Sequence record: PQ306573.1
From: Escherichia phage vB_EcoM_PTE-Eco05
DNA length: 64,000 nucleotides
Direction: 5' to 3' (one strand)
Below are positions 4,252-8,542 of this stretch, in pieces. A program made the translations under genes and the position numbers. The notes beneath the pieces are model-generated. The model was not told the origin of the DNA and did not search any database. It saw nothing but the letters and a program-made list of their open reading frames with translations. The stretch's first letter is position 1. Each line of letters opens with the position of its first letter.

Positions 4252-4744
4252 GTTTTTGACTAGCGAAATGAAGGTTAAGATCGCTGATACTGCTCGGTAC
4301 TCGTTGAAACAAGATCCAGGTCAAATAAAAGAAGACGTTGTTCGACGTTGTAAGGTTGCAGTCTTTGCAGAGTATGTAGTAGCAAATTGGCTAGACGGAT
4401 ATGTTAATAAAGGTAATGAAGACGTAGAAGACCCGTACACGTATGCATGGGACGTTTTAGCTCATCCTAAGTACTGTGGTCTACGCGTAGAAGTAAAGAC
4501 CCATCAGATGGATTCGAAATGGATTTCGGTTACCACAGGATACAGTGGTGATTATCCGGGTGGTAATGGAATCAATATAGGGCCCTTCTTGAACCATCGA
4601 GTCGCAGATTGCATTATTATATTAGATGTCAAAGAAACCTCACCTGACGTCTTCTCTTATTCTATAAAGTTCGTGGGAGACCATGAAGACCTAAAGAAAA
4701 TCGTCCGCAAGAGCAACTACAACGGGTGGTATCTTCATCTTTAA
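4187..4744 (+). CDS. denB: Putative endonuclease IV (DenB-like) by position and length
   Basis: 185 aa from ATG 4187 with AGAGG RBS; sits where denB lies after rIIB in T4; no motif verified. Confidence 0.4.
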   Translation: MVKTNLGLLRLKSLPTFILSNEFLTSEMKVKIADTARYSLKQDPGQIKEDVVRRCKVAVFAEYVVANWLDGYVNKGNEDVEDPYTYAWDVLAHPKYCGLRVEVKTHQMDSKWISVTTGYSGDYPGGNGINIGPFLNHRVADCIIILDVKETSPDVFSYSIKFVGDHEDLKKIVRKSNYNGWYLHL

Positions 4745-4756
4745 TTTCATAAAAGT

Positions 4757-4786
4757 GTTTACAACTAAGTAGGACTATGATATAGT
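4757..4786 (+). promoter_or_regulatory. T4-type early promoter
   Basis: GTTTAC-N18-TATAGT; inverted repeat AGGACTA/TAGTCCT straddles the -10. Confidence 0.55.
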
Positions 4787-4812
4787 AGTCCTATCTAAAA
4801 GAAGATAACATC

Positions 4813-5076
4813 ATGAAATTTAAATTTTTCTACGCAAAACATAAAGTAACAGGCGAATTTGTTTCAATGTGCAACACTGCAGATGACGAAGGGATGATTT
4901 ATACCCATTTGGGTCTATCTCATTGGGACTCGGACGTGCCTTATATGTCATCTGAAGCCGAAATAACTCGTTTAGTTAACGGACATATGAACGACCATTT
5001 TGGTATTATTCTTTCTAAAGACCTTAAAGAGGTTATCAACAAAGGATATATGGAACTCGCGGAAGTTGAGATATGA
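4813..5076 (+). CDS. Hypothetical early protein
   Basis: 87-aa ORF downstream of early promoter. Confidence 0.45.
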   Translation: MKFKFFYAKHKVTGEFVSMCNTADDEGMIYTHLGLSHWDSDVPYMSSEAEITRLVNGHMNDHFGIILSKDLKEVINKGYMELAEVEI

Positions 5077-5268
5077 GCTCTAAAATGTGGATAGGAATAT
5101 GGTTGCTTAGTATCCCAATGATTTGTATAATATTTTCAATTGTGTTGAGGTACTTATGAAAAATGCACTTCTTATTGTACTAAGAACAATTTGTGATGCG
5201 TGGTTTTACATCGCATGTTCGTTCACTGGAACATGGTTGGCTTTAACATATTTTAATGTAATTTAATT

Positions 5269-5298
5269 GTTTACAACAAGGTAGGATTATGGTATAGT
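5269..5298 (+). promoter_or_regulatory. T4-type early promoter
   Basis: GTTTAC-N18-TATAGT with inverted repeat GTAGGATTA/TAGTCCTAC. Confidence 0.55.
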
Positions 5299-5326
5299 AG
5301 TCCTACTGAAACATGAGGAACACAAA

Positions 5327-5527
5327 ATGGCTAAGCTTTTTAAAGATGTTGAAATTGGTGAAAAATTTGTTCTGAATAACGGTCAGCAGCTTATTCGTGT
5401 AGCTTCTATCGCCGGACAAACTCATAACTGTATCGCCCCAACGTGTTGGACTCGATTCTTTATTGAAGATGACACTGAATGTTTAACTGTTGAAGAGCTT
5501 TTTGAACGTTCTGATATAGCCGAATAA
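5327..5527 (+). CDS. Hypothetical early protein
   Basis: 66-aa ORF with GAGGAA RBS. Confidence 0.45.
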   Translation: MAKLFKDVEIGEKFVLNNGQQLIRVASIAGQTHNCIAPTCWTRFFIEDDTECLTVEELFERSDIAE

Positions 5528-5529
5528 AA

Positions 5530-5559
5530 TTGTACAAACTCTTGAGAGCAGAGTATAAT
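5530..5559 (+). promoter_or_regulatory. T4-type early promoter
   Basis: TTGTAC-N18-TATAAT; inverted repeat GAGAGC/GCTCTC flanks the -10. Confidence 0.5.
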
Positions 5560-5605
5560 GCTCTCATGGATTACAAAAAAACATTAATCAATTGAGGAAA
5601 TTAGC

Positions 5606-6052
5606 ATGTCCAAATATTTAACTCGTAAAGACCTTCTGGCAGTTGGCGGTGAAGTTGTTGCAGTAGTTCGTAATGGCGAATACGGTTCTGAAGTTTCTAA
5701 AGAGTTTCGTTCTCGTGAAGGTTTTTACTTCTTCGTTAAAGGTTCATCTGATTGGCGACAAGTAGCAGCACGATTCTTTGTAGGACGTCAACGTTCTAAA
5801 CAAGGGTTGGATGCAATTCTTTCTCACATTCGTCAAGGCCGTTCGCAACTAGCCCGTACCATGGGCACTAACAATATTGAATATGATGTAATCTTTGTTG
5901 CAGCTAAGAACATGAAACCACTGACCACTGGTTATGGTAAAGGTCAATTGGCTCTGGCATTCACTCGCAACCATACATCAGAATATCAAACACTCACTGA
6001 AATGAACCGTCTTCTGGCTGATAATTTCAAATTCATTCTGCAGAGTTACTAA
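5606..6052 (+). CDS. ndd: Nucleoid disruption protein Ndd
   Basis: 148 aa; strong match to remembered T4 Ndd (e.g. RFYVGxQRSKQG, SHIRQxRSQLART, [20 protein letters not shown]). Confidence 0.85.
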
Positions 6053-6104
6053 TTTATACAGGCCTATTAAGTTAGGCCTTTAATTTATTTTTGAGGTAAT
6101 TAAA

Positions 6105-6251
6105 ATGGTATCATGGATTATTGCATTGTTGTGTTGGTCGTTTTTATTCGTTAACACTTTAGTTACAGGCGAAACAACGGTATTTCAACAGGCCGTATCA
6201 CAAGGCACCTTAGCGGTCTTAGCTCTTCTTAACGTGTTAAAAGGCGAGTAA
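6105..6251 (+). CDS. Small hydrophobic membrane peptide (48 aa), possibly ac/52.1-like
   Basis: Not in ORF track; ATG 6105, hydrophobic MVSWIIALLCWSFLFV; stop overlaps next start (TAATG). Confidence 0.35.
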   Translation: MVSWIIALLCWSFLFVNTLVTGETTVFQQAVSQGTLAVLALLNVLKGE

Positions 6252-6391
6252 TGATTAAGAAAATCTTAGCAGGAGCCTTCGGGCTCTTGTTGTTGCTTAC
6301 GGTTCTGTACTACGGTGTGATGTTTGGACTAATCCAAGTAGTGCTTTTCATTTCAGATGTTATAATGGTTATTCGTTCATTAATATGGTGA
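6251..6391 (+). CDS. Small hydrophobic membrane peptide (46 aa)
   Basis: Not in ORF track; MIKKILAGAFGLLLLLTVLYYGV; ends 4 nt before gene 52. Confidence 0.35.
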   Translation: MIKKILAGAFGLLLLLTVLYYGVMFGLIQVVLFISDVIMVIRSLIW

Positions 6392-6395
6392 AAAT

Positions 6396-7721
6396 ATGCA
6401 ATTGAATTCTCGTAATCTAAAAAGTATTATTGATAACGAAGCCTTAGCATATGCGATGTACACCGTTGAAAACCGTGCAATCCCAAACATGATTGATGGA
6501 TTTAAGCCGGTTCAACGTTTTGTGGTTCATCGTGCGTTAGATTTGGCTCGTGGTAATAAAGAAAAATTTCATAAACTTGCGTCAATTGCAGGAGGTGTTG
6601 CAGATTTAGGTTATCACCATGGTGAATCTTCTGCACAAGATGCAGGTGCATTGATGGCTAACACATGGAACAACAACTATCCACTGTTAGATGGCCAAGG
6701 CAACTTTGGTTCTAGAACAGTCCAAAAAGCTGCAGCATCTCGTTATATTTTTGCTCGTGTAAGTAAAAATTTCTATAACGTATATAAAGACACTGAATAT
6801 GCTCCAGCTCATGAAGATAAAGAACATATTCCACCAAAATTCTATCTTCCTATTATTCCGACAGTTCTTTTGAATGGTGTCTCTGGTATTGCAACCGGTT
6901 ACGCAACAAATATTCTGCCTCATAGTTTTAAATCAGTCAAAAAGGCTGTATTACAAGCTCTTCAAGGTAAAAATGTCACTAAGCCAAAAGTTGAATTCCC
7001 GGAATTCCGTGGTGAAGTACATGAAGTTGATGGGCGTTATGAGATTCACGGAACATATAAGTTCACGTCTCGCACTCAAATGCAGATAACTGAAATCCCA
7101 TATAAATTCGACCGTGAAACGTATGTGAGTAAGGTTCTTGACCCGTTGGAAGACAAAGGTCTAATCTCATGGGAAGATGATTGTGGTGAACACGGCTTTG
7201 GGTTTAAGGTGAAGTTCCGTAAAGAGTACTCGCTTCCTGATGATGAAGAGCTACGTCATGAAAAAATCATGAAAGATTTTAGTCTCATCGAACGTCGTTC
7301 ACAAAACATCACAGTGATTAATGAAAAGGGTAAATTAGCGGTCTACGATAACGTAGTGGACTTAATCAAAGATTTTGTTGAAGTCCGTAAGACTTACGTT
7401 CAGAAACGTATTGACAACAAAATCCTTGAATCTGAAAAAGCATTTAAACTGGCTTTTGCTAAGGCGCACTTCATCAAAAAAGTTATCAACGGTGAAATTG
7501 TGATTCAAGGCAAGACTCGTAAAGCTTTGACTGAAGAGCTAGCACAAATCGAAATGTATAAAGAACATGTCGATAAACTGGTAGGTCTTAACATCTTCCA
7601 TATCACTTCCGATGAAGCACGTAAATTAGCAGAAGAAGCTAAAGCTAAGAAAGAAGAAAATGAGTATTGGAAGTCTACTGATGTTGTGACAGAGTACACT
7701 AAAGACTTGGAGGCACTTTGA
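6396..7721 (+). CDS. 52: DNA topoisomerase II medium subunit (GyrA-like)
   Basis: 441 aa; FKPVQRFVVHRAL and YHHGESS motifs; T4 gp52 length. Confidence 0.9.
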   Translation: MQLNSRNLKSIIDNEALAYAMYTVENRAIPNMIDGFKPVQRFVVHRALDLARGNKEKFHKLASIAGGVADLGYHHGESSAQDAGALMANTWNNNYPLLDGQGNFGSRTVQKAAASRYIFARVSKNFYNVYKDTEYAPAHEDKEHIPPKFYLPIIPTVLLNGVSGIATGYATNILPHSFKSVKKAVLQALQGKNVTKPKVEFPEFRGEVHEVDGRYEIHGTYKFTSRTQMQITEIPYKFDRETYVSKVLDPLEDKGLISWEDDCGEHGFGFKVKFRKEYSLPDDEELRHEKIMKDFSLIERRSQNITVINEKGKLAVYDNVVDLIKDFVEVRKTYVQKRIDNKILESEKAFKLAFAKAHFIKKVINGEIVIQGKTRKALTEELAQIEMYKEHVDKLVGLNIFHITSDEARKLAEEAKAKKEENEYWKSTDVVTEYTKDLEAL

Positions 7722-7797
7722 GTGCCCTAGCCTTAGGATTTCTCGGTGCAATAGCTGCACTAGTGATTTGGCTGTATTGGTTGGACAAACATGATTA

Positions 7798-7817
7798 GGG
7801 AGCTTCGGCTCCCTTTT
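7798..7817 (+). terminator. Rho-independent terminator, UUCG hairpin
   Basis: GGGAGC-TTCG-GCTCCC + TTTTG. Confidence 0.65.
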
Positions 7818-7841
7818 GTGCATTTTTTTCCTCACAAAACA

Positions 7842-7870
7842 GTTTACATGTGCTTCAAACATGATATTAT
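7842..7870 (+). promoter_or_regulatory. Early/middle promoter upstream of motA
   Basis: GTTTAC-N17-TATTAT; TGCTTCA (MotA-box-like) in the spacer. Confidence 0.5.
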
Positions 7871-7909
7871 AGACCTATCAAAACAAAACAACCAAATTGG
7901 AGAAATAAA

Positions 7910-8542
7910 ATGTCTAAAGTTACTTACATCATCAAAGCTTCTGAAAACGCTCTGAATGAAAAAACTGCTGCAATAATGGTTTATATCATTAAGAACAACT
8001 TCACCACTGCTGCCAATGTCCGTGAAGCTCTGGAAGCGGAATACAACGCATCGGTTGTTAACTCTAACATTGGTGTATTGATTAAGAAAGGTTTAGTCGA
8101 AAAATCCGGTGATGGACTTGTAGCAACAGGCGAAGCAATGGATATTATCCAAAAAGCTGCAGACCTCTTTGCCCAAGAAAATGCTCCAGAACTTCTTCAG
8201 AAACGTAACACTAGAAAAGCACGTGGAGTTACTCCTGAAATGCATGAATTAGCAAACTTTGTTTTTGAAAATATTAAAGATAAAGTTGAAGTTAAAGAAA
8301 TTGGTGAAAACCGTAGTAACTTGGAAGTTCGATTTGCAAAACGAGTTCTAGGTATTCGTCAGATCGAAATTCGTCGAGATGGTTCTCTTAGAATCTTTGC
8401 ATACAACATGTCAGAAACTGAATCAAAGCTGTTTACTTCTCTTGAAAATGATGTTAAGATTAAGATCGGTGGTAAATATACTTACATTGACTTCCCTAAT
8501 GTGTCCAAAGAAATCATTACCCTTGTAACTAATGTACTGTGA
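7910..8542 (+). CDS. motA: Middle-transcription activator MotA
   Basis: 210 aa; N-terminus MSKVTYIIKAS and internal NSNIGVLIKKGLVEKSGDGL match T4 MotA. Confidence 0.9.
   Translation: MSKVTYIIKASENALNEKTAAIMVYIIKNNFTTAANVREALEAEYNASVVNSNIGVLIKKGLVEKSGDGLVATGEAMDIIQKAADLFAQENAPELLQKRNTRKARGVTPEMHELANFVFENIKDKVEVKEIGENRSNLEVRFAKRVLGIRQIEIRRDGSLRIFAYNMSETESKLFTSLENDVKIKIGGKYTYIDFPNVSKEIITLVTNVL

Follow-up and report, generated by a model that had tools for sequence, protein, structure and literature searches.

Five tiny hydrophobic open reading frames (ORFs) of a T4-like Mosigvirus phage are, with a probability of roughly 80%, real and conserved early genes. Their products, of 28, 36, 48, 46, and 26 aa in genome order, are most likely single-pass proteins of the inner membrane that are made early in infection. 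The window analysed here, the whole 64,000-nt stretch of DNA, is Mosigvirus genome sequence and shares 98.9% identity with phage vB_Eco_mar005P1. All five hydrophobic micro-ORFs pointed out by a sequence-only reading of this DNA were located in it, with small corrections of their coordinates. The observation is correct but largely known already: three of the ORFs are the counterparts of T4 ndd.6, ac, and 52.1, and the RefSeq record of phage HX01 carries annotations for all five. On sequence comparison, these three are homologous to the genes for T4 Ndd.6, Ac, and gp52.1, whereas the 36-aa and 26-aa ORFs are equivalents of ndd.5 and motA.1 in position only.

Hydrophobicity and selection on the reading frames

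Against a background of the 520 ORFs of 24–59 aa that the window contains in its six frames, the GRAVY values of the five ORFs fall between the 91st and the 99th percentile. Their best 17-residue Kyte–Doolittle windows score, in genome order, 2.69, 1.74, 2.11, 2.45, and 2.49, and each peptide contains a run of uncharged hydrophobic residues of sufficient length to cross a bilayer. Conservation of the frames was compared over 17 Mosigvirus genomes (16 for the 28-aa ORF). The frames stay open throughout, with a single break in phage F2, whose 36-aa ORF carries an insertion of 1 nt; the other indels within the micro-ORFs keep the frame. Most of the variation resides at third codon positions, and pN/pS amounts to 0.075, 0.295, 0.205, 0.250, and 0.163 in genome order, the neighbouring genes lying lower still at 0.035–0.065. 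For each ORF, the proposed frame is the sole stop-free frame of the plus strand and the one with the lowest plus-strand pN/pS. A Shine–Dalgarno or translational-coupling signal is present at all five.

These data have to be weighed against the view that AT-rich intergenic DNA has produced these open frames by chance and that they are not translated. Small ORFs are plentiful, as the 520 of this size class in the window illustrate, and T-rich codons favour hydrophobic residues. In addition, no peptide was detected for the T4 counterparts: Ac, gp52.1, MotA.1, Stp, and Ndd.2–Ndd.6 all escaped a proteome study (PMC9697503), which is weak negative evidence since short hydrophobic peptides are hard for standard LC-MS. 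The transcripts of T4 ac, 52.1, motA.1, and ndd.2–ndd.6 are classed as early in the same work (PMC9697503 Table S2). However, purifying selection specific to the proposed frame, together with in-frame indels, is seen in five of five ORFs, all of which carry initiation or coupling signals; three have homologs with conserved motifs over several T4-like genera, and T4 ac has a genetic phenotype. Chance is thus a highly improbable explanation for the set, and for ac, 52.1, and ndd.6 it is close to refuted.

The sequence-only reading had taken the ORFs for membrane micro-protein genes and had suggested looking for their frames in related phages. In these relatives the open frames are kept, with purifying selection in the proposed frames, and hydrophobicity, frame conservation, and selection together support the assignment. 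Family searches in Pfam and NCBIfam returned no match for four of the five peptides, all but the 46-aa gp52.1 homolog, and searches of PDB sequences with the peptides gave nothing meaningful. An Rfam scan of positions 4500–8500 found no RNA family, so that an explanation of the region by RNA elements is unsupported.

The 28-aa and 36-aa ORFs downstream of orf87

The first coupled string opens with an 87-aa ORF (4813..5076, plus strand; pN/pS 0.064), a homolog of RB69ORF270c. It is preceded by an early-promoter-like site, TTTACA-17-TATAGT (4758..4786, plus strand), and a second such site lies after the 36-aa ORF and before ndd.1 (5270..5298, plus strand); both are consensus matches only, and promoter-like sites are no more numerous in the region than in shuffled sequence. 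The TGA of the 87-aa ORF and the ATG at 5073 overlap as ATGA. This ATG most likely is the start of the next cistron, a 28-aa Ndd.6 homolog (5073..5159, plus strand), as judged from the overlap and from the alignment of T4 Ndd.6 (MSSLWW...) with the peptide (MSSKMWIG...) from residue 1. The sequence-only reading had therefore recognized a genuine ORF here but had probably begun it too late, at the internal ATG 5085, to give 24 aa.

The 28-aa peptide consists of one hydrophobic helix (residues 5–25) flanked by K4 and R26. It matches phrog_8851 over its full length (E 3.7e-11, residues 1–28 of 28), a family also hit by T4 Ndd.6 (28 aa, NP_049886; E 1.6e-17), with which it shares its length, 53.6% identity across all 28 residues, and the motif MSS..W...WL.SIP.IC. 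Both genes run through an ATGA overlap into a small hydrophobic ORF, and they differ in the upstream neighbour, which is denB for T4 Ndd.6 and the 87-aa ORF in the window. Among the fetched T4-like loci, 22 have an Ndd.6 homolog, and all 16 Mosigvirus genomes compared keep the ORF intact, with the lowest pN/pS of the five. The family phrog_8851 bears the label 'outer membrane protein', an old localisation prediction. The inner membrane would be a better fit for an Ndd.6-type helix than this label, because the peptide has a single alpha-helical hydrophobic segment between a lysine and an arginine.

The third cistron is a 36-aa hydrophobic ORF specific to Mosigvirus (5156..5266, plus strand; phrog_18561, E 1.3e-26), for which the sequence-only reading had the right ORF and length with coordinates one position off (5157..5267). 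It occupies the position of T4 ndd.5, its start overlaps the stop of the 28-aa ORF as ATGA, and a GAGGT Shine–Dalgarno sequence stands 4 nt 5′ of the start. T4 Ndd.5 (32 aa, NP_049885) likewise follows ndd.6 through an ATGA overlap and is similar in size and hydrophobicity. Homology to Ndd.5 was considered and found no support: the PHROG of T4 Ndd.5 is 5011, whereas the sole PHROG match of the 36-aa ORF is 18561, and a search of the window with T4 Ndd.5 yielded no match at E ≤ 0.05. The 36-aa ORF also weakly resembles phrog_9347 (E 0.069), a 53-aa family that takes the ac position in other genera; the two have an FTG.W motif in common.

Being the least constrained of the five, with the highest pN/pS (0.30), and confined to Mosigvirus, the 36-aa ORF might be a decaying or non-functional remnant that has stayed open through recent common ancestry and not through selection. 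In phage F2 the frameshifting insertion is accompanied by a change of the Shine–Dalgarno sequence from GAGGT to GAGAT, and in PECP20 the match is split in two pieces at 75%. On the other hand, the ORF is full-length in about 150 of 152 phage records, all of Mosigvirus type; the three Mosigvirus genomes with a 3-nt deletion in it all keep the frame; its Shine–Dalgarno sequence is good and its ATGA coupling is that of T4 ndd.6/ndd.5; and the other two plus-strand frames hold 2–3 stops with pN/pS of at least 1. Decay is thus unlikely for the 36-aa ORF, and a maintained gene is the preferred reading.

ac and 52.1 ahead of gene 52

The second string follows ndd (5606–6052). A terminator-like hairpin directly 5′ of ac (6060..6079, plus strand; the equivalent place is annotated as a terminator in G2469 and PhAPEC2) separates the two genes, whereas T4 has stp between ndd and ac, a gene without a homolog in the window. 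The tandem pair that comes next had been proposed to stand where T4 has ac and 52.1, and family matches for both members, to phrog_2501 and to Pfam DUF7396, bear this out.

The 48-aa ORF (6105..6251, plus strand), composed of an N-terminal hydrophobic helix, a polar linker, and a short second helix, matches positions 3–49 of 50 of phrog_2501 (E 4.5e-22), the profile that T4 Ac (51 aa, NP_049877) matches at E 2.2e-25. A tblastn search of the window with T4 Ac hits positions 6117–6230 (E 3.5e-5), and relatives carry the ORF as 'acridine resistance protein'. Besides the PHROG family, the two proteins share their size and layout, the place between ndd and 52.1 on the early strand, and a VFxQAxxQG motif including a glycine, which is G38 in T4 Ac and, allowing for the alignment offset, G34 here; the G38R exchange renders T4 acriflavine-resistant. 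Their identity is just 34% over 38 residues, and their lengths differ (48 vs 51 aa). Homologs of ac are present in 18 fetched loci, and within Mosigvirus the gene shows a pN/pS of 0.21 and an in-frame deletion in F2.

The ac stop and the 52.1 start are joined as TAATG at 6249–6253, exactly as the sequence-only reading had described. The 46-aa product of 52.1 (6251..6391, plus strand; phrog_3595) is covered in full, residues 1–46 of 46, by Pfam PF24129 (DUF7396; 79.9 bits, gathering cutoff 27), a domain carried by all 12 database homologs of the ORF. It is 72% identical to T4 gp52.1 (46 aa, NP_049876, DUF7396/phrog_3595) and equals it in length and in its site directly 5′ of gene 52. The invariant core LYYGVMFGLIQVVLFISDVIM...SL.W is common to both, and the N-terminal third is unlike, reading AGAFGLLLLLTV in the window homolog vs GYSLALAALLVA in T4 gp52.1. 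An alignment of 13 sequences has 20 invariant columns; residue 40 is variable among close Mosigvirus genomes. AlphaFold2 predicts one continuous helix from residue 2 to residue 45 (pLDDT 97). Homologs of 52.1 were found in 32 fetched loci, and in these, as in T4, the gene lies directly 5′ of gene 52. Here its stop (6389–6391) is placed 4 nt before the gene 52 ATG at 6396.

The 26-aa ORF after gene 52

Gene 52 (6396..7721, plus strand) encodes the medium subunit of topoisomerase II, and its last codons hold the Shine–Dalgarno sequence and the start of the next micro-ORF. As the sequence-only reading had noted, GGAGG (7709..7713, plus strand) lies 4 nt before a TTG whose overlap with the gene 52 stop forms TTGA at 7718–7721; the GGAGG is conserved in 17 of 17 Mosigvirus genomes. 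The 26-aa hydrophobic ORF (7718..7798, plus strand; GRAVY 1.19) starting at this TTG had been recognized as well, with an end at 7796, and it extends to 7798 when the TAG stop is included. It is intact in every one of the 17 Mosigvirus genomes; in LF82-4 the start is ATG instead of TTG, through a substitution that leaves the gp52 protein unaltered. Counted by codon position, the variable sites are 4/0/7, and pN/pS, computed from only these 11 sites, is 0.13–0.16. The exact protein has one public annotation, YP_010247053.1 of HX01. The peptide matches no PHROG, Pfam, or NCBIfam family, the best PHROG match being an unrelated family at E 0.07. With this peptide, tblastn of the phage collection came back almost empty because the low-complexity filter masks it; DNA searches and unfiltered tblastn were used instead, and neither unfiltered tblastn of the fetched loci nor PHROGs detected relatives outside Mosigvirus.

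The architecture is that of T4 motA.1: a short hydrophobic ORF upstream of motA whose start overlaps the gene 52 stop. T4 MotA.1 (49 aa, NP_049874, phrog_3487) shares with the 26-aa ORF the slot, the 4-nt overlap, a Shine–Dalgarno sequence within gene 52, hydrophobicity, and, downstream, a terminator and the motA promoter. The two differ in length (26 vs 49 aa) and start codon (TTG vs ATG) and have no detectable sequence similarity. Homology found no support, with the 26-aa ORF giving no match to the phrog_3487 profile and T4 MotA.1 matching nothing in the window.

Downstream lies an intrinsic terminator, a GGGAGC-UUCG-GCUCCC hairpin with a U-tract (7797..7814, plus strand; an ARNold terminator is annotated here in PhAPEC2). 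Its stem starts inside the TAG of the 26-aa ORF (7796–7798), so that the stop codon overlaps the first two stem bases. This arrangement invites the interpretation that the ORF is a translational or transcriptional device whose peptide sequence is irrelevant: ribosomes reinitiating at the gene 52 stop would meet the terminator stem and thereby tune termination and read-through to motA, or protect the 3′ end of the mRNA. In T4 and Dhakavirus-like loci, too, 0–7 nt separate the end of the equivalent ORF from a GC hairpin and its U-tract, and neither BLAST nor PHROGs link the sequences in this slot between genera. Yet the slot occupants, save that of L026, are all strongly hydrophobic and of transmembrane-helix length (GRAVY 1.2–2.7), a pattern that a pure ribosome-traffic role does not need. 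The Mosigvirus ORF combines its low pN/pS with zero second-position changes, and in compact phage genomes it is nothing unusual for the last gene of an operon to end at a terminator. A device of this kind is therefore quite improbable.

Alternatively, the constraint at 7721–7795 could stem from an antisense 78-aa ORF (7626–7862, minus strand), since the minus-strand frame whose third codon positions coincide with those of the sense ORF has no stop in the window and a pN/pS of 0.11. A sense coding frame is, however, expected to produce a low antisense value as a mirror artefact. The start and length of the antisense ORF shift between genomes (106, 78, 77, 69, 68, and 65 aa), it is shortened to 48 aa in LF82-4 and 44 aa in phiC120, and no open antisense frame in JS09 exceeds 29 aa, the one of that length being in another frame. 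The ORF moreover opposes the direction of early transcription and crosses both terminator and promoter. Given this instability and truncation it was rejected, its probability being almost nil, and the constraint is best ascribed to the 26-aa frame.

A modest new point emerges from the comparison of loci. A hydrophobic ORF overlapping the gene 52 stop is kept in 24 of 36 T4-like loci, in at least six sequence types that neither BLAST nor PHROGs link to one another, the 26-aa TTG-initiated one of Mosigvirus among them, and in other genera a similar GGAGG or GAGGA stands ahead of the equivalent ORF. From the start/stop overlap, the products of the slot would be made in step with gp52. It is conceivable, albeit doubtful, that behind gene 52 lies a conserved slot with translational coupling, which different T4-like genera fill with single-pass membrane micro-proteins of 23–77 aa. 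Taken jointly with the variable cassettes at ndd.x and at the ac position, turnover there would then be the sign of a locus for host interaction or an arms race.

Possible functions and implications

In the proposed scheme, each ORF would yield a peptide of 26–48 aa that is essentially one hydrophobic alpha-helix, and the five would be expressed from two strings of translationally coupled genes on the strand transcribed early. The first would run from orf87 through the 28-aa Ndd.6 homolog to the 36-aa ORF by way of two ATGA overlaps, and the second from ac through 52.1 and gene 52 to the 26-aa ORF by way of TAATG, a 4-nt gap, and TTGA, ending at the intrinsic terminator. Within the first few minutes after infection, the peptides may enter the host inner membrane and modify how the envelope functions. 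The sequence-only reading had named transport, efflux sensitivity, and exclusion as possible roles; these are inferences except for Ac, where T4 genetics ties the gene to acridine sensitivity, and Ac is alone among the five in having a phenotype on record.

E. coli AcrZ is a small AcrB-binding inner-membrane protein of about 49 aa. It provides a functional analogy only for the 48-aa Ac: both fall into a similar size class, and both would act on AcrAB-TolC if the hypothesis of a recent preprint is right, but the two have no sequence relationship, and no AcrZ chain came up when the whole PDB was searched by phmmer with the window Ac (E ≤ 10). According to that preprint, deletion or point mutation of ac makes T4 acriflavine-resistant and Ac expression sensitises E. 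coli, the acridine phenotype being known for T2 and T4 only (bioRxiv 10.1101/2025.06.30.662393). The action on AcrAB-TolC is a hypothesis. Taken with T4 genetics, this 2025 work suggests that Ac raises intracellular acridine, by a block of AcrAB-TolC efflux or by a change in permeability. The remaining four peptides would be accessory envelope modifiers. By analogy with T4, in which deletions from 52.1 to denB or rIIB are viable (PMC6071114; PMC9712115), an essential role appears to be excluded under laboratory conditions.

None of this should surprise a T4 specialist, and the main value lies in the quality of annotation: the 28-aa Ndd.6 homolog and the 26-aa ORF are absent from most Mosigvirus records. 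Small phage membrane proteins are, however, an under-studied class, one member of which, Ac, has a link to the accumulation of drugs and perhaps to AcrAB-TolC. The stimulation of phospholipid synthesis that T4 induces is lost in the deletion saΔ9 (52.1 through denB; PMC6071114), and a clean list of the micro-genes that are conserved leaves fewer candidates for this effect. If the proposal for the slot after gene 52 is true, its occupants may serve, for example, in anti-defence, superinfection exclusion, or the control of efflux or lipid synthesis.

Identification and gene context

Positions 4700–8000 of the window match 153 phage records over the whole query at 95–99% identity (megablast), the closest being Escherichia virus vB_Eco_mar005P1 (98.9%), a phage of the RB69 group (genus Mosigvirus) among the T4-like phages. 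Early transcription runs along the + strand, and annotated relatives show the order rIIB, 87–95-aa ORF, denB, RB69ORF270c, ndd.1, ndd, ac, 52.1, 52, motA. This is the T4 backbone, to which T4 adds further small genes. No homolog of T4 stp, ndd.2–ndd.5, motA.1 or denB.1 is detectable across the 64-kb window and, whereas T4 carries stp (activator of the PrrC anticodon nuclease) between ndd and ac, the corresponding interval 6053–6104 holds only a terminator-like hairpin. An insertion of ~320 bp with a 71-aa ORF separates the terminator from motA in APCEc01, PhAPEC2, SF, HX01, JS09, and LF82-4 (comparison loci L001 4709–4924; L044 4930–5145; L046 6166–6381), and a comparable one in NHEP29 is annotated as a larger ORF; the insertion is missing from RB69, mar005P1, and the window, where its point lies between 7815 and 7842.

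All five small hydrophobic ORFs proposed by the sequence-only reading are present on the + strand, three of them with revised boundaries. The first, placed at 5085, is better read as a 28-aa ORF at 5073–5159 (MSSKMWIGIWLLSIPMICIIFSIVLRYL), since the alignment with T4 Ndd.6 (MSSLWWCFVWLISIPVICLTFTFVMRLL) begins at residue 1; its start codon and the stop of the 87-aa ORF upstream share an ATGA. The second indeed encodes 36 aa, at 5156–5266, one base earlier than claimed, with its start likewise sharing an ATGA with the 28-aa stop. The tandem ORFs of 48 aa (6105–6251) and 46 aa (6251–6391), joined by TAATG, lie upstream of gene 52 exactly as described. The 26-aa ORF starts, as proposed, with a TTG overlapping the gene 52 TGA as TTGA, preceded by GGAGG at 7709–7713; it spans 7718–7798 including the stop, slightly beyond the end first assigned. 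Ranked against the 520 ORFs of 24–59 aa contained in a six-frame translation of the window, the five reach the 91st–99th percentile for GRAVY and the 85th–99th for the best 17-residue hydrophobic window. All are annotated in RefSeq HX01 (NC_018855; the 26-aa ORF as YP_010247053.1), and the 28-aa and 26-aa ORFs are left out of most other records. Exact-sequence look-up returned the 28-aa protein from a few BASEL-collection phages and the 26-aa protein from the HX01 entry only.

T4 counterparts and predicted structure

Comparison with the translated small annotated genes of T4 gave clear identities for three ORFs. By sequence similarity, the 28-aa ORF is assigned to Ndd.6 (54% identity over the full length, both matching phrog_8851), the 48-aa ORF to Ac (phrog_2501, E 4.5e-22, compared with 2.2e-25 for T4 Ac; annotated as acridine resistance protein in relatives), and the 46-aa ORF to gp52.1 (72% identity; Pfam DUF7396, 79.9 bits, cutoff 27), so that the tandem pair before gene 52 corresponds to T4 ac and 52.1, as had been supposed. 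The 36-aa and 26-aa ORFs are equivalents of T4 genes by position only. While the 36-aa ORF shares with T4 ndd.5 the ATGA overlap with ndd.6, it belongs to phrog_18561 and Ndd.5 to phrog_5011. The 26-aa ORF has no family match in PHROG, Pfam or NCBIfam; its position is occupied in T4 by motA.1, a 49-aa hydrophobic ORF whose ATG, like the TTG of the 26-aa ORF, forms a 4-nt overlap with the gene 52 stop.

From a 13-sequence alignment, AlphaFold2 models 52.1 as a single unbroken helix (residues 2–45, pLDDT 97), with an N-terminal KK and D36/R42 toward the C-terminus. The other four peptides each contain one hydrophobic stretch of 17–22 residues with charges on both sides; two short helices have been predicted by ESMFold for T4 Ac (bioRxiv 10.1101/2025.06.30.662393). 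A PDB search found no related solved structure and no AcrZ chain. The label ‘outer membrane protein’ is attached to T4 Ndd.6, phrog_8851, and HX01 gp199. Given the single hydrophobic alpha-helical segment of the 28-aa peptide, flanked by K4 and R26, this looks like a legacy localisation prediction, and a single-pass inner-membrane topology would be the better fit.

Conservation within Mosigvirus

Reading-frame conservation in close relatives, one of the checks named by the sequence-only reading, was followed in an alignment of 17 Mosigvirus sequences, made up of the window, eight named GenBank species or strains, and others. The 28-, 48-, 46-, and 26-aa frames stay uninterrupted in all genomes covering them; disruption is seen in the 36-aa ORF, which is open in 15 of 16 genomes and, by tblastn, complete in some 150 of 152 records. 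In phage F2, a 1-nt insertion extends the A-run after its ATG from A5 to A6 and the Shine-Dalgarno is weakened from GAGGT to GAGAT, two lesions that suggest true gene loss rather than a sequencing error. A few genomes, with F2 and PECP20 as candidates, may be losing the 36-aa ORF; such decay is unlikely across the genus. The F2 record places this phage in Tequatrovirus; its 36-aa ORF region is Mosigvirus-like. Apart from the F2 insertion all indels keep the frame, namely 3-nt deletions in the 36-aa ORF of SF, S143_2, and NHEP29 and in F2 ac. In LF82-4 the 26-aa ORF starts with ATG instead of TTG, the change (CTT to CTA) being synonymous in gp52.

Pairwise Nei-Gojobori pN/pS amounts to 0.075 for the Ndd.6 homolog, 0.295 for the 36-aa ORF, 0.205 for ac, 0.250 for 52.1, and 0.163 for the 26-aa ORF, compared with 0.035–0.065 for orf87 (the 87-aa ORF), ndd.1, ndd, and gp52. 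Third codon positions hold most variable sites (4/0/7 by position in the 26-aa ORF). When all six frames were compared as a control, no + frame other than the proposed one was free of stops at any of the five ORFs, and the proposed one also gave the lowest ratio on the + strand; the mirror antisense frame is likewise low, as expected. An antisense ORF of 78 aa that overlies the 26-aa gene was rejected, as its start and length vary between genomes: shortened forms occur in LF82-4 and phiC120, and JS09 lacks a counterpart.

Further variation concerns the tandem pair. The ac stop is changed from TAA to CAA in SF, HX01, and JS09, adding one Gln (49 aa) and, in HX01 (L046 4510–4513), turning the TAATG junction (window 6249–6253) into a 4-nt overlap with 52.1. 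Near-invariant otherwise, gp52.1 shows V, D, I, A, and T at codon 40 (window 6368–6370; GTT, GAT, ATT, GCT, ACT) among the 17 close genomes; the changes affect the first and second codon positions, and the site may be under diversifying selection.

Turnover in the slot after gene 52

Unfiltered tblastn against 38 IMG/VR loci, retrieved with gp52 as query (47–100% identity), and further comparison loci detected homologs of Ndd.6 in 22 loci, of ac in 18, and of 52.1 in 32; the 36-aa and 26-aa ORFs were confined to Mosigvirus. A hydrophobic ORF (23–77 aa, GRAVY 1.2–2.7) is present at the gene 52 end in 24 of 36 loci with the gp52 C-terminus, beginning 4 or 10 nt before that end and preceded by a GGAGG- or GAGGA-type Shine-Dalgarno within the last gp52 codons. 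The slot is filled by no fewer than six sequence types. In a PHROG scan of three of them, the T4-type 49-aa ORF fell into PHROG 3487, the Dhakavirus-type 34-aa ORF into PHROG 16377, and the Mosigvirus type had no match. In T4, Dhakavirus-like loci, and Mosigvirus, a GC hairpin with U-tract begins 0–7 nt after the slot ORF, which makes this ORF the last cistron of the ac-52.1-52 unit. The 26-aa ORF could possibly serve as a device for ribosome traffic or terminator tuning, but such a role leaves the hydrophobicity of all but one slot occupant unexplained; a membrane micro-protein is the preferred reading.

The terminator hairpin (window 7797–7814) has two forms among Mosigvirus genomes, GGGAGC-TTCG-GCTCCC in the window and 11 others and GGGAGC-CGAA-GCTCCC in RB69, PhAPEC2, JS09, LF82-4, and S143_2 (loci L043, L044, L048, L049, and L051 compared). 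As reverse-complementing the former gives exactly the latter, the palindrome appears to have been inverted while its stem was retained. In some Dhakavirus-like genomes the N-terminus of 52.1 occurs a second time in truncated form (EILGYSVALSSLLVTLYYGVI), inside a 24-aa ORF ~290 bp upstream of intact 52.1 (L010 3061–3141; L032 3004–3084).

Functional implications

Deletions and point mutants of T4 ac (e.g., G38R) render the phage acriflavine-resistant, and E. coli becomes more sensitive to acriflavine and ampicillin when Ac is expressed. Membrane-inserted Ac has been proposed to impair AcrAB-TolC (bioRxiv 10.1101/2025.06.30.662393); a 2026 PNAS paper restates this proposal as an assumption. Allowing for alignment offset, G38 is kept in the window Ac as G34. 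No function has been reported in the literature for the other four ORFs or their T4 counterparts. The T4 counterparts are transcribed early, and shotgun proteomics did not detect their proteins (PMC9697503 Table S2). Two T4 deletions, saΔ9 (52.1 to denB) and GT7 (gp52.1 to rIIB), leave the phage viable (PMC6071114; PMC9712115), and saΔ9 abolishes the phage-induced stimulation of phospholipid synthesis (PMC6071114).

The five genes are known T4-family genes or previously annotated Mosigvirus ORFs; the initial observation was right and its interpretation sound, and novelty is minimal apart from the micro-protein turnover documented after gene 52. All five would be early, translationally coupled micro-proteins, probably inserted as single-pass proteins into the inner membrane, where they may adjust host envelope functions through presumed targets, Ac probably acting on drug efflux or permeability.
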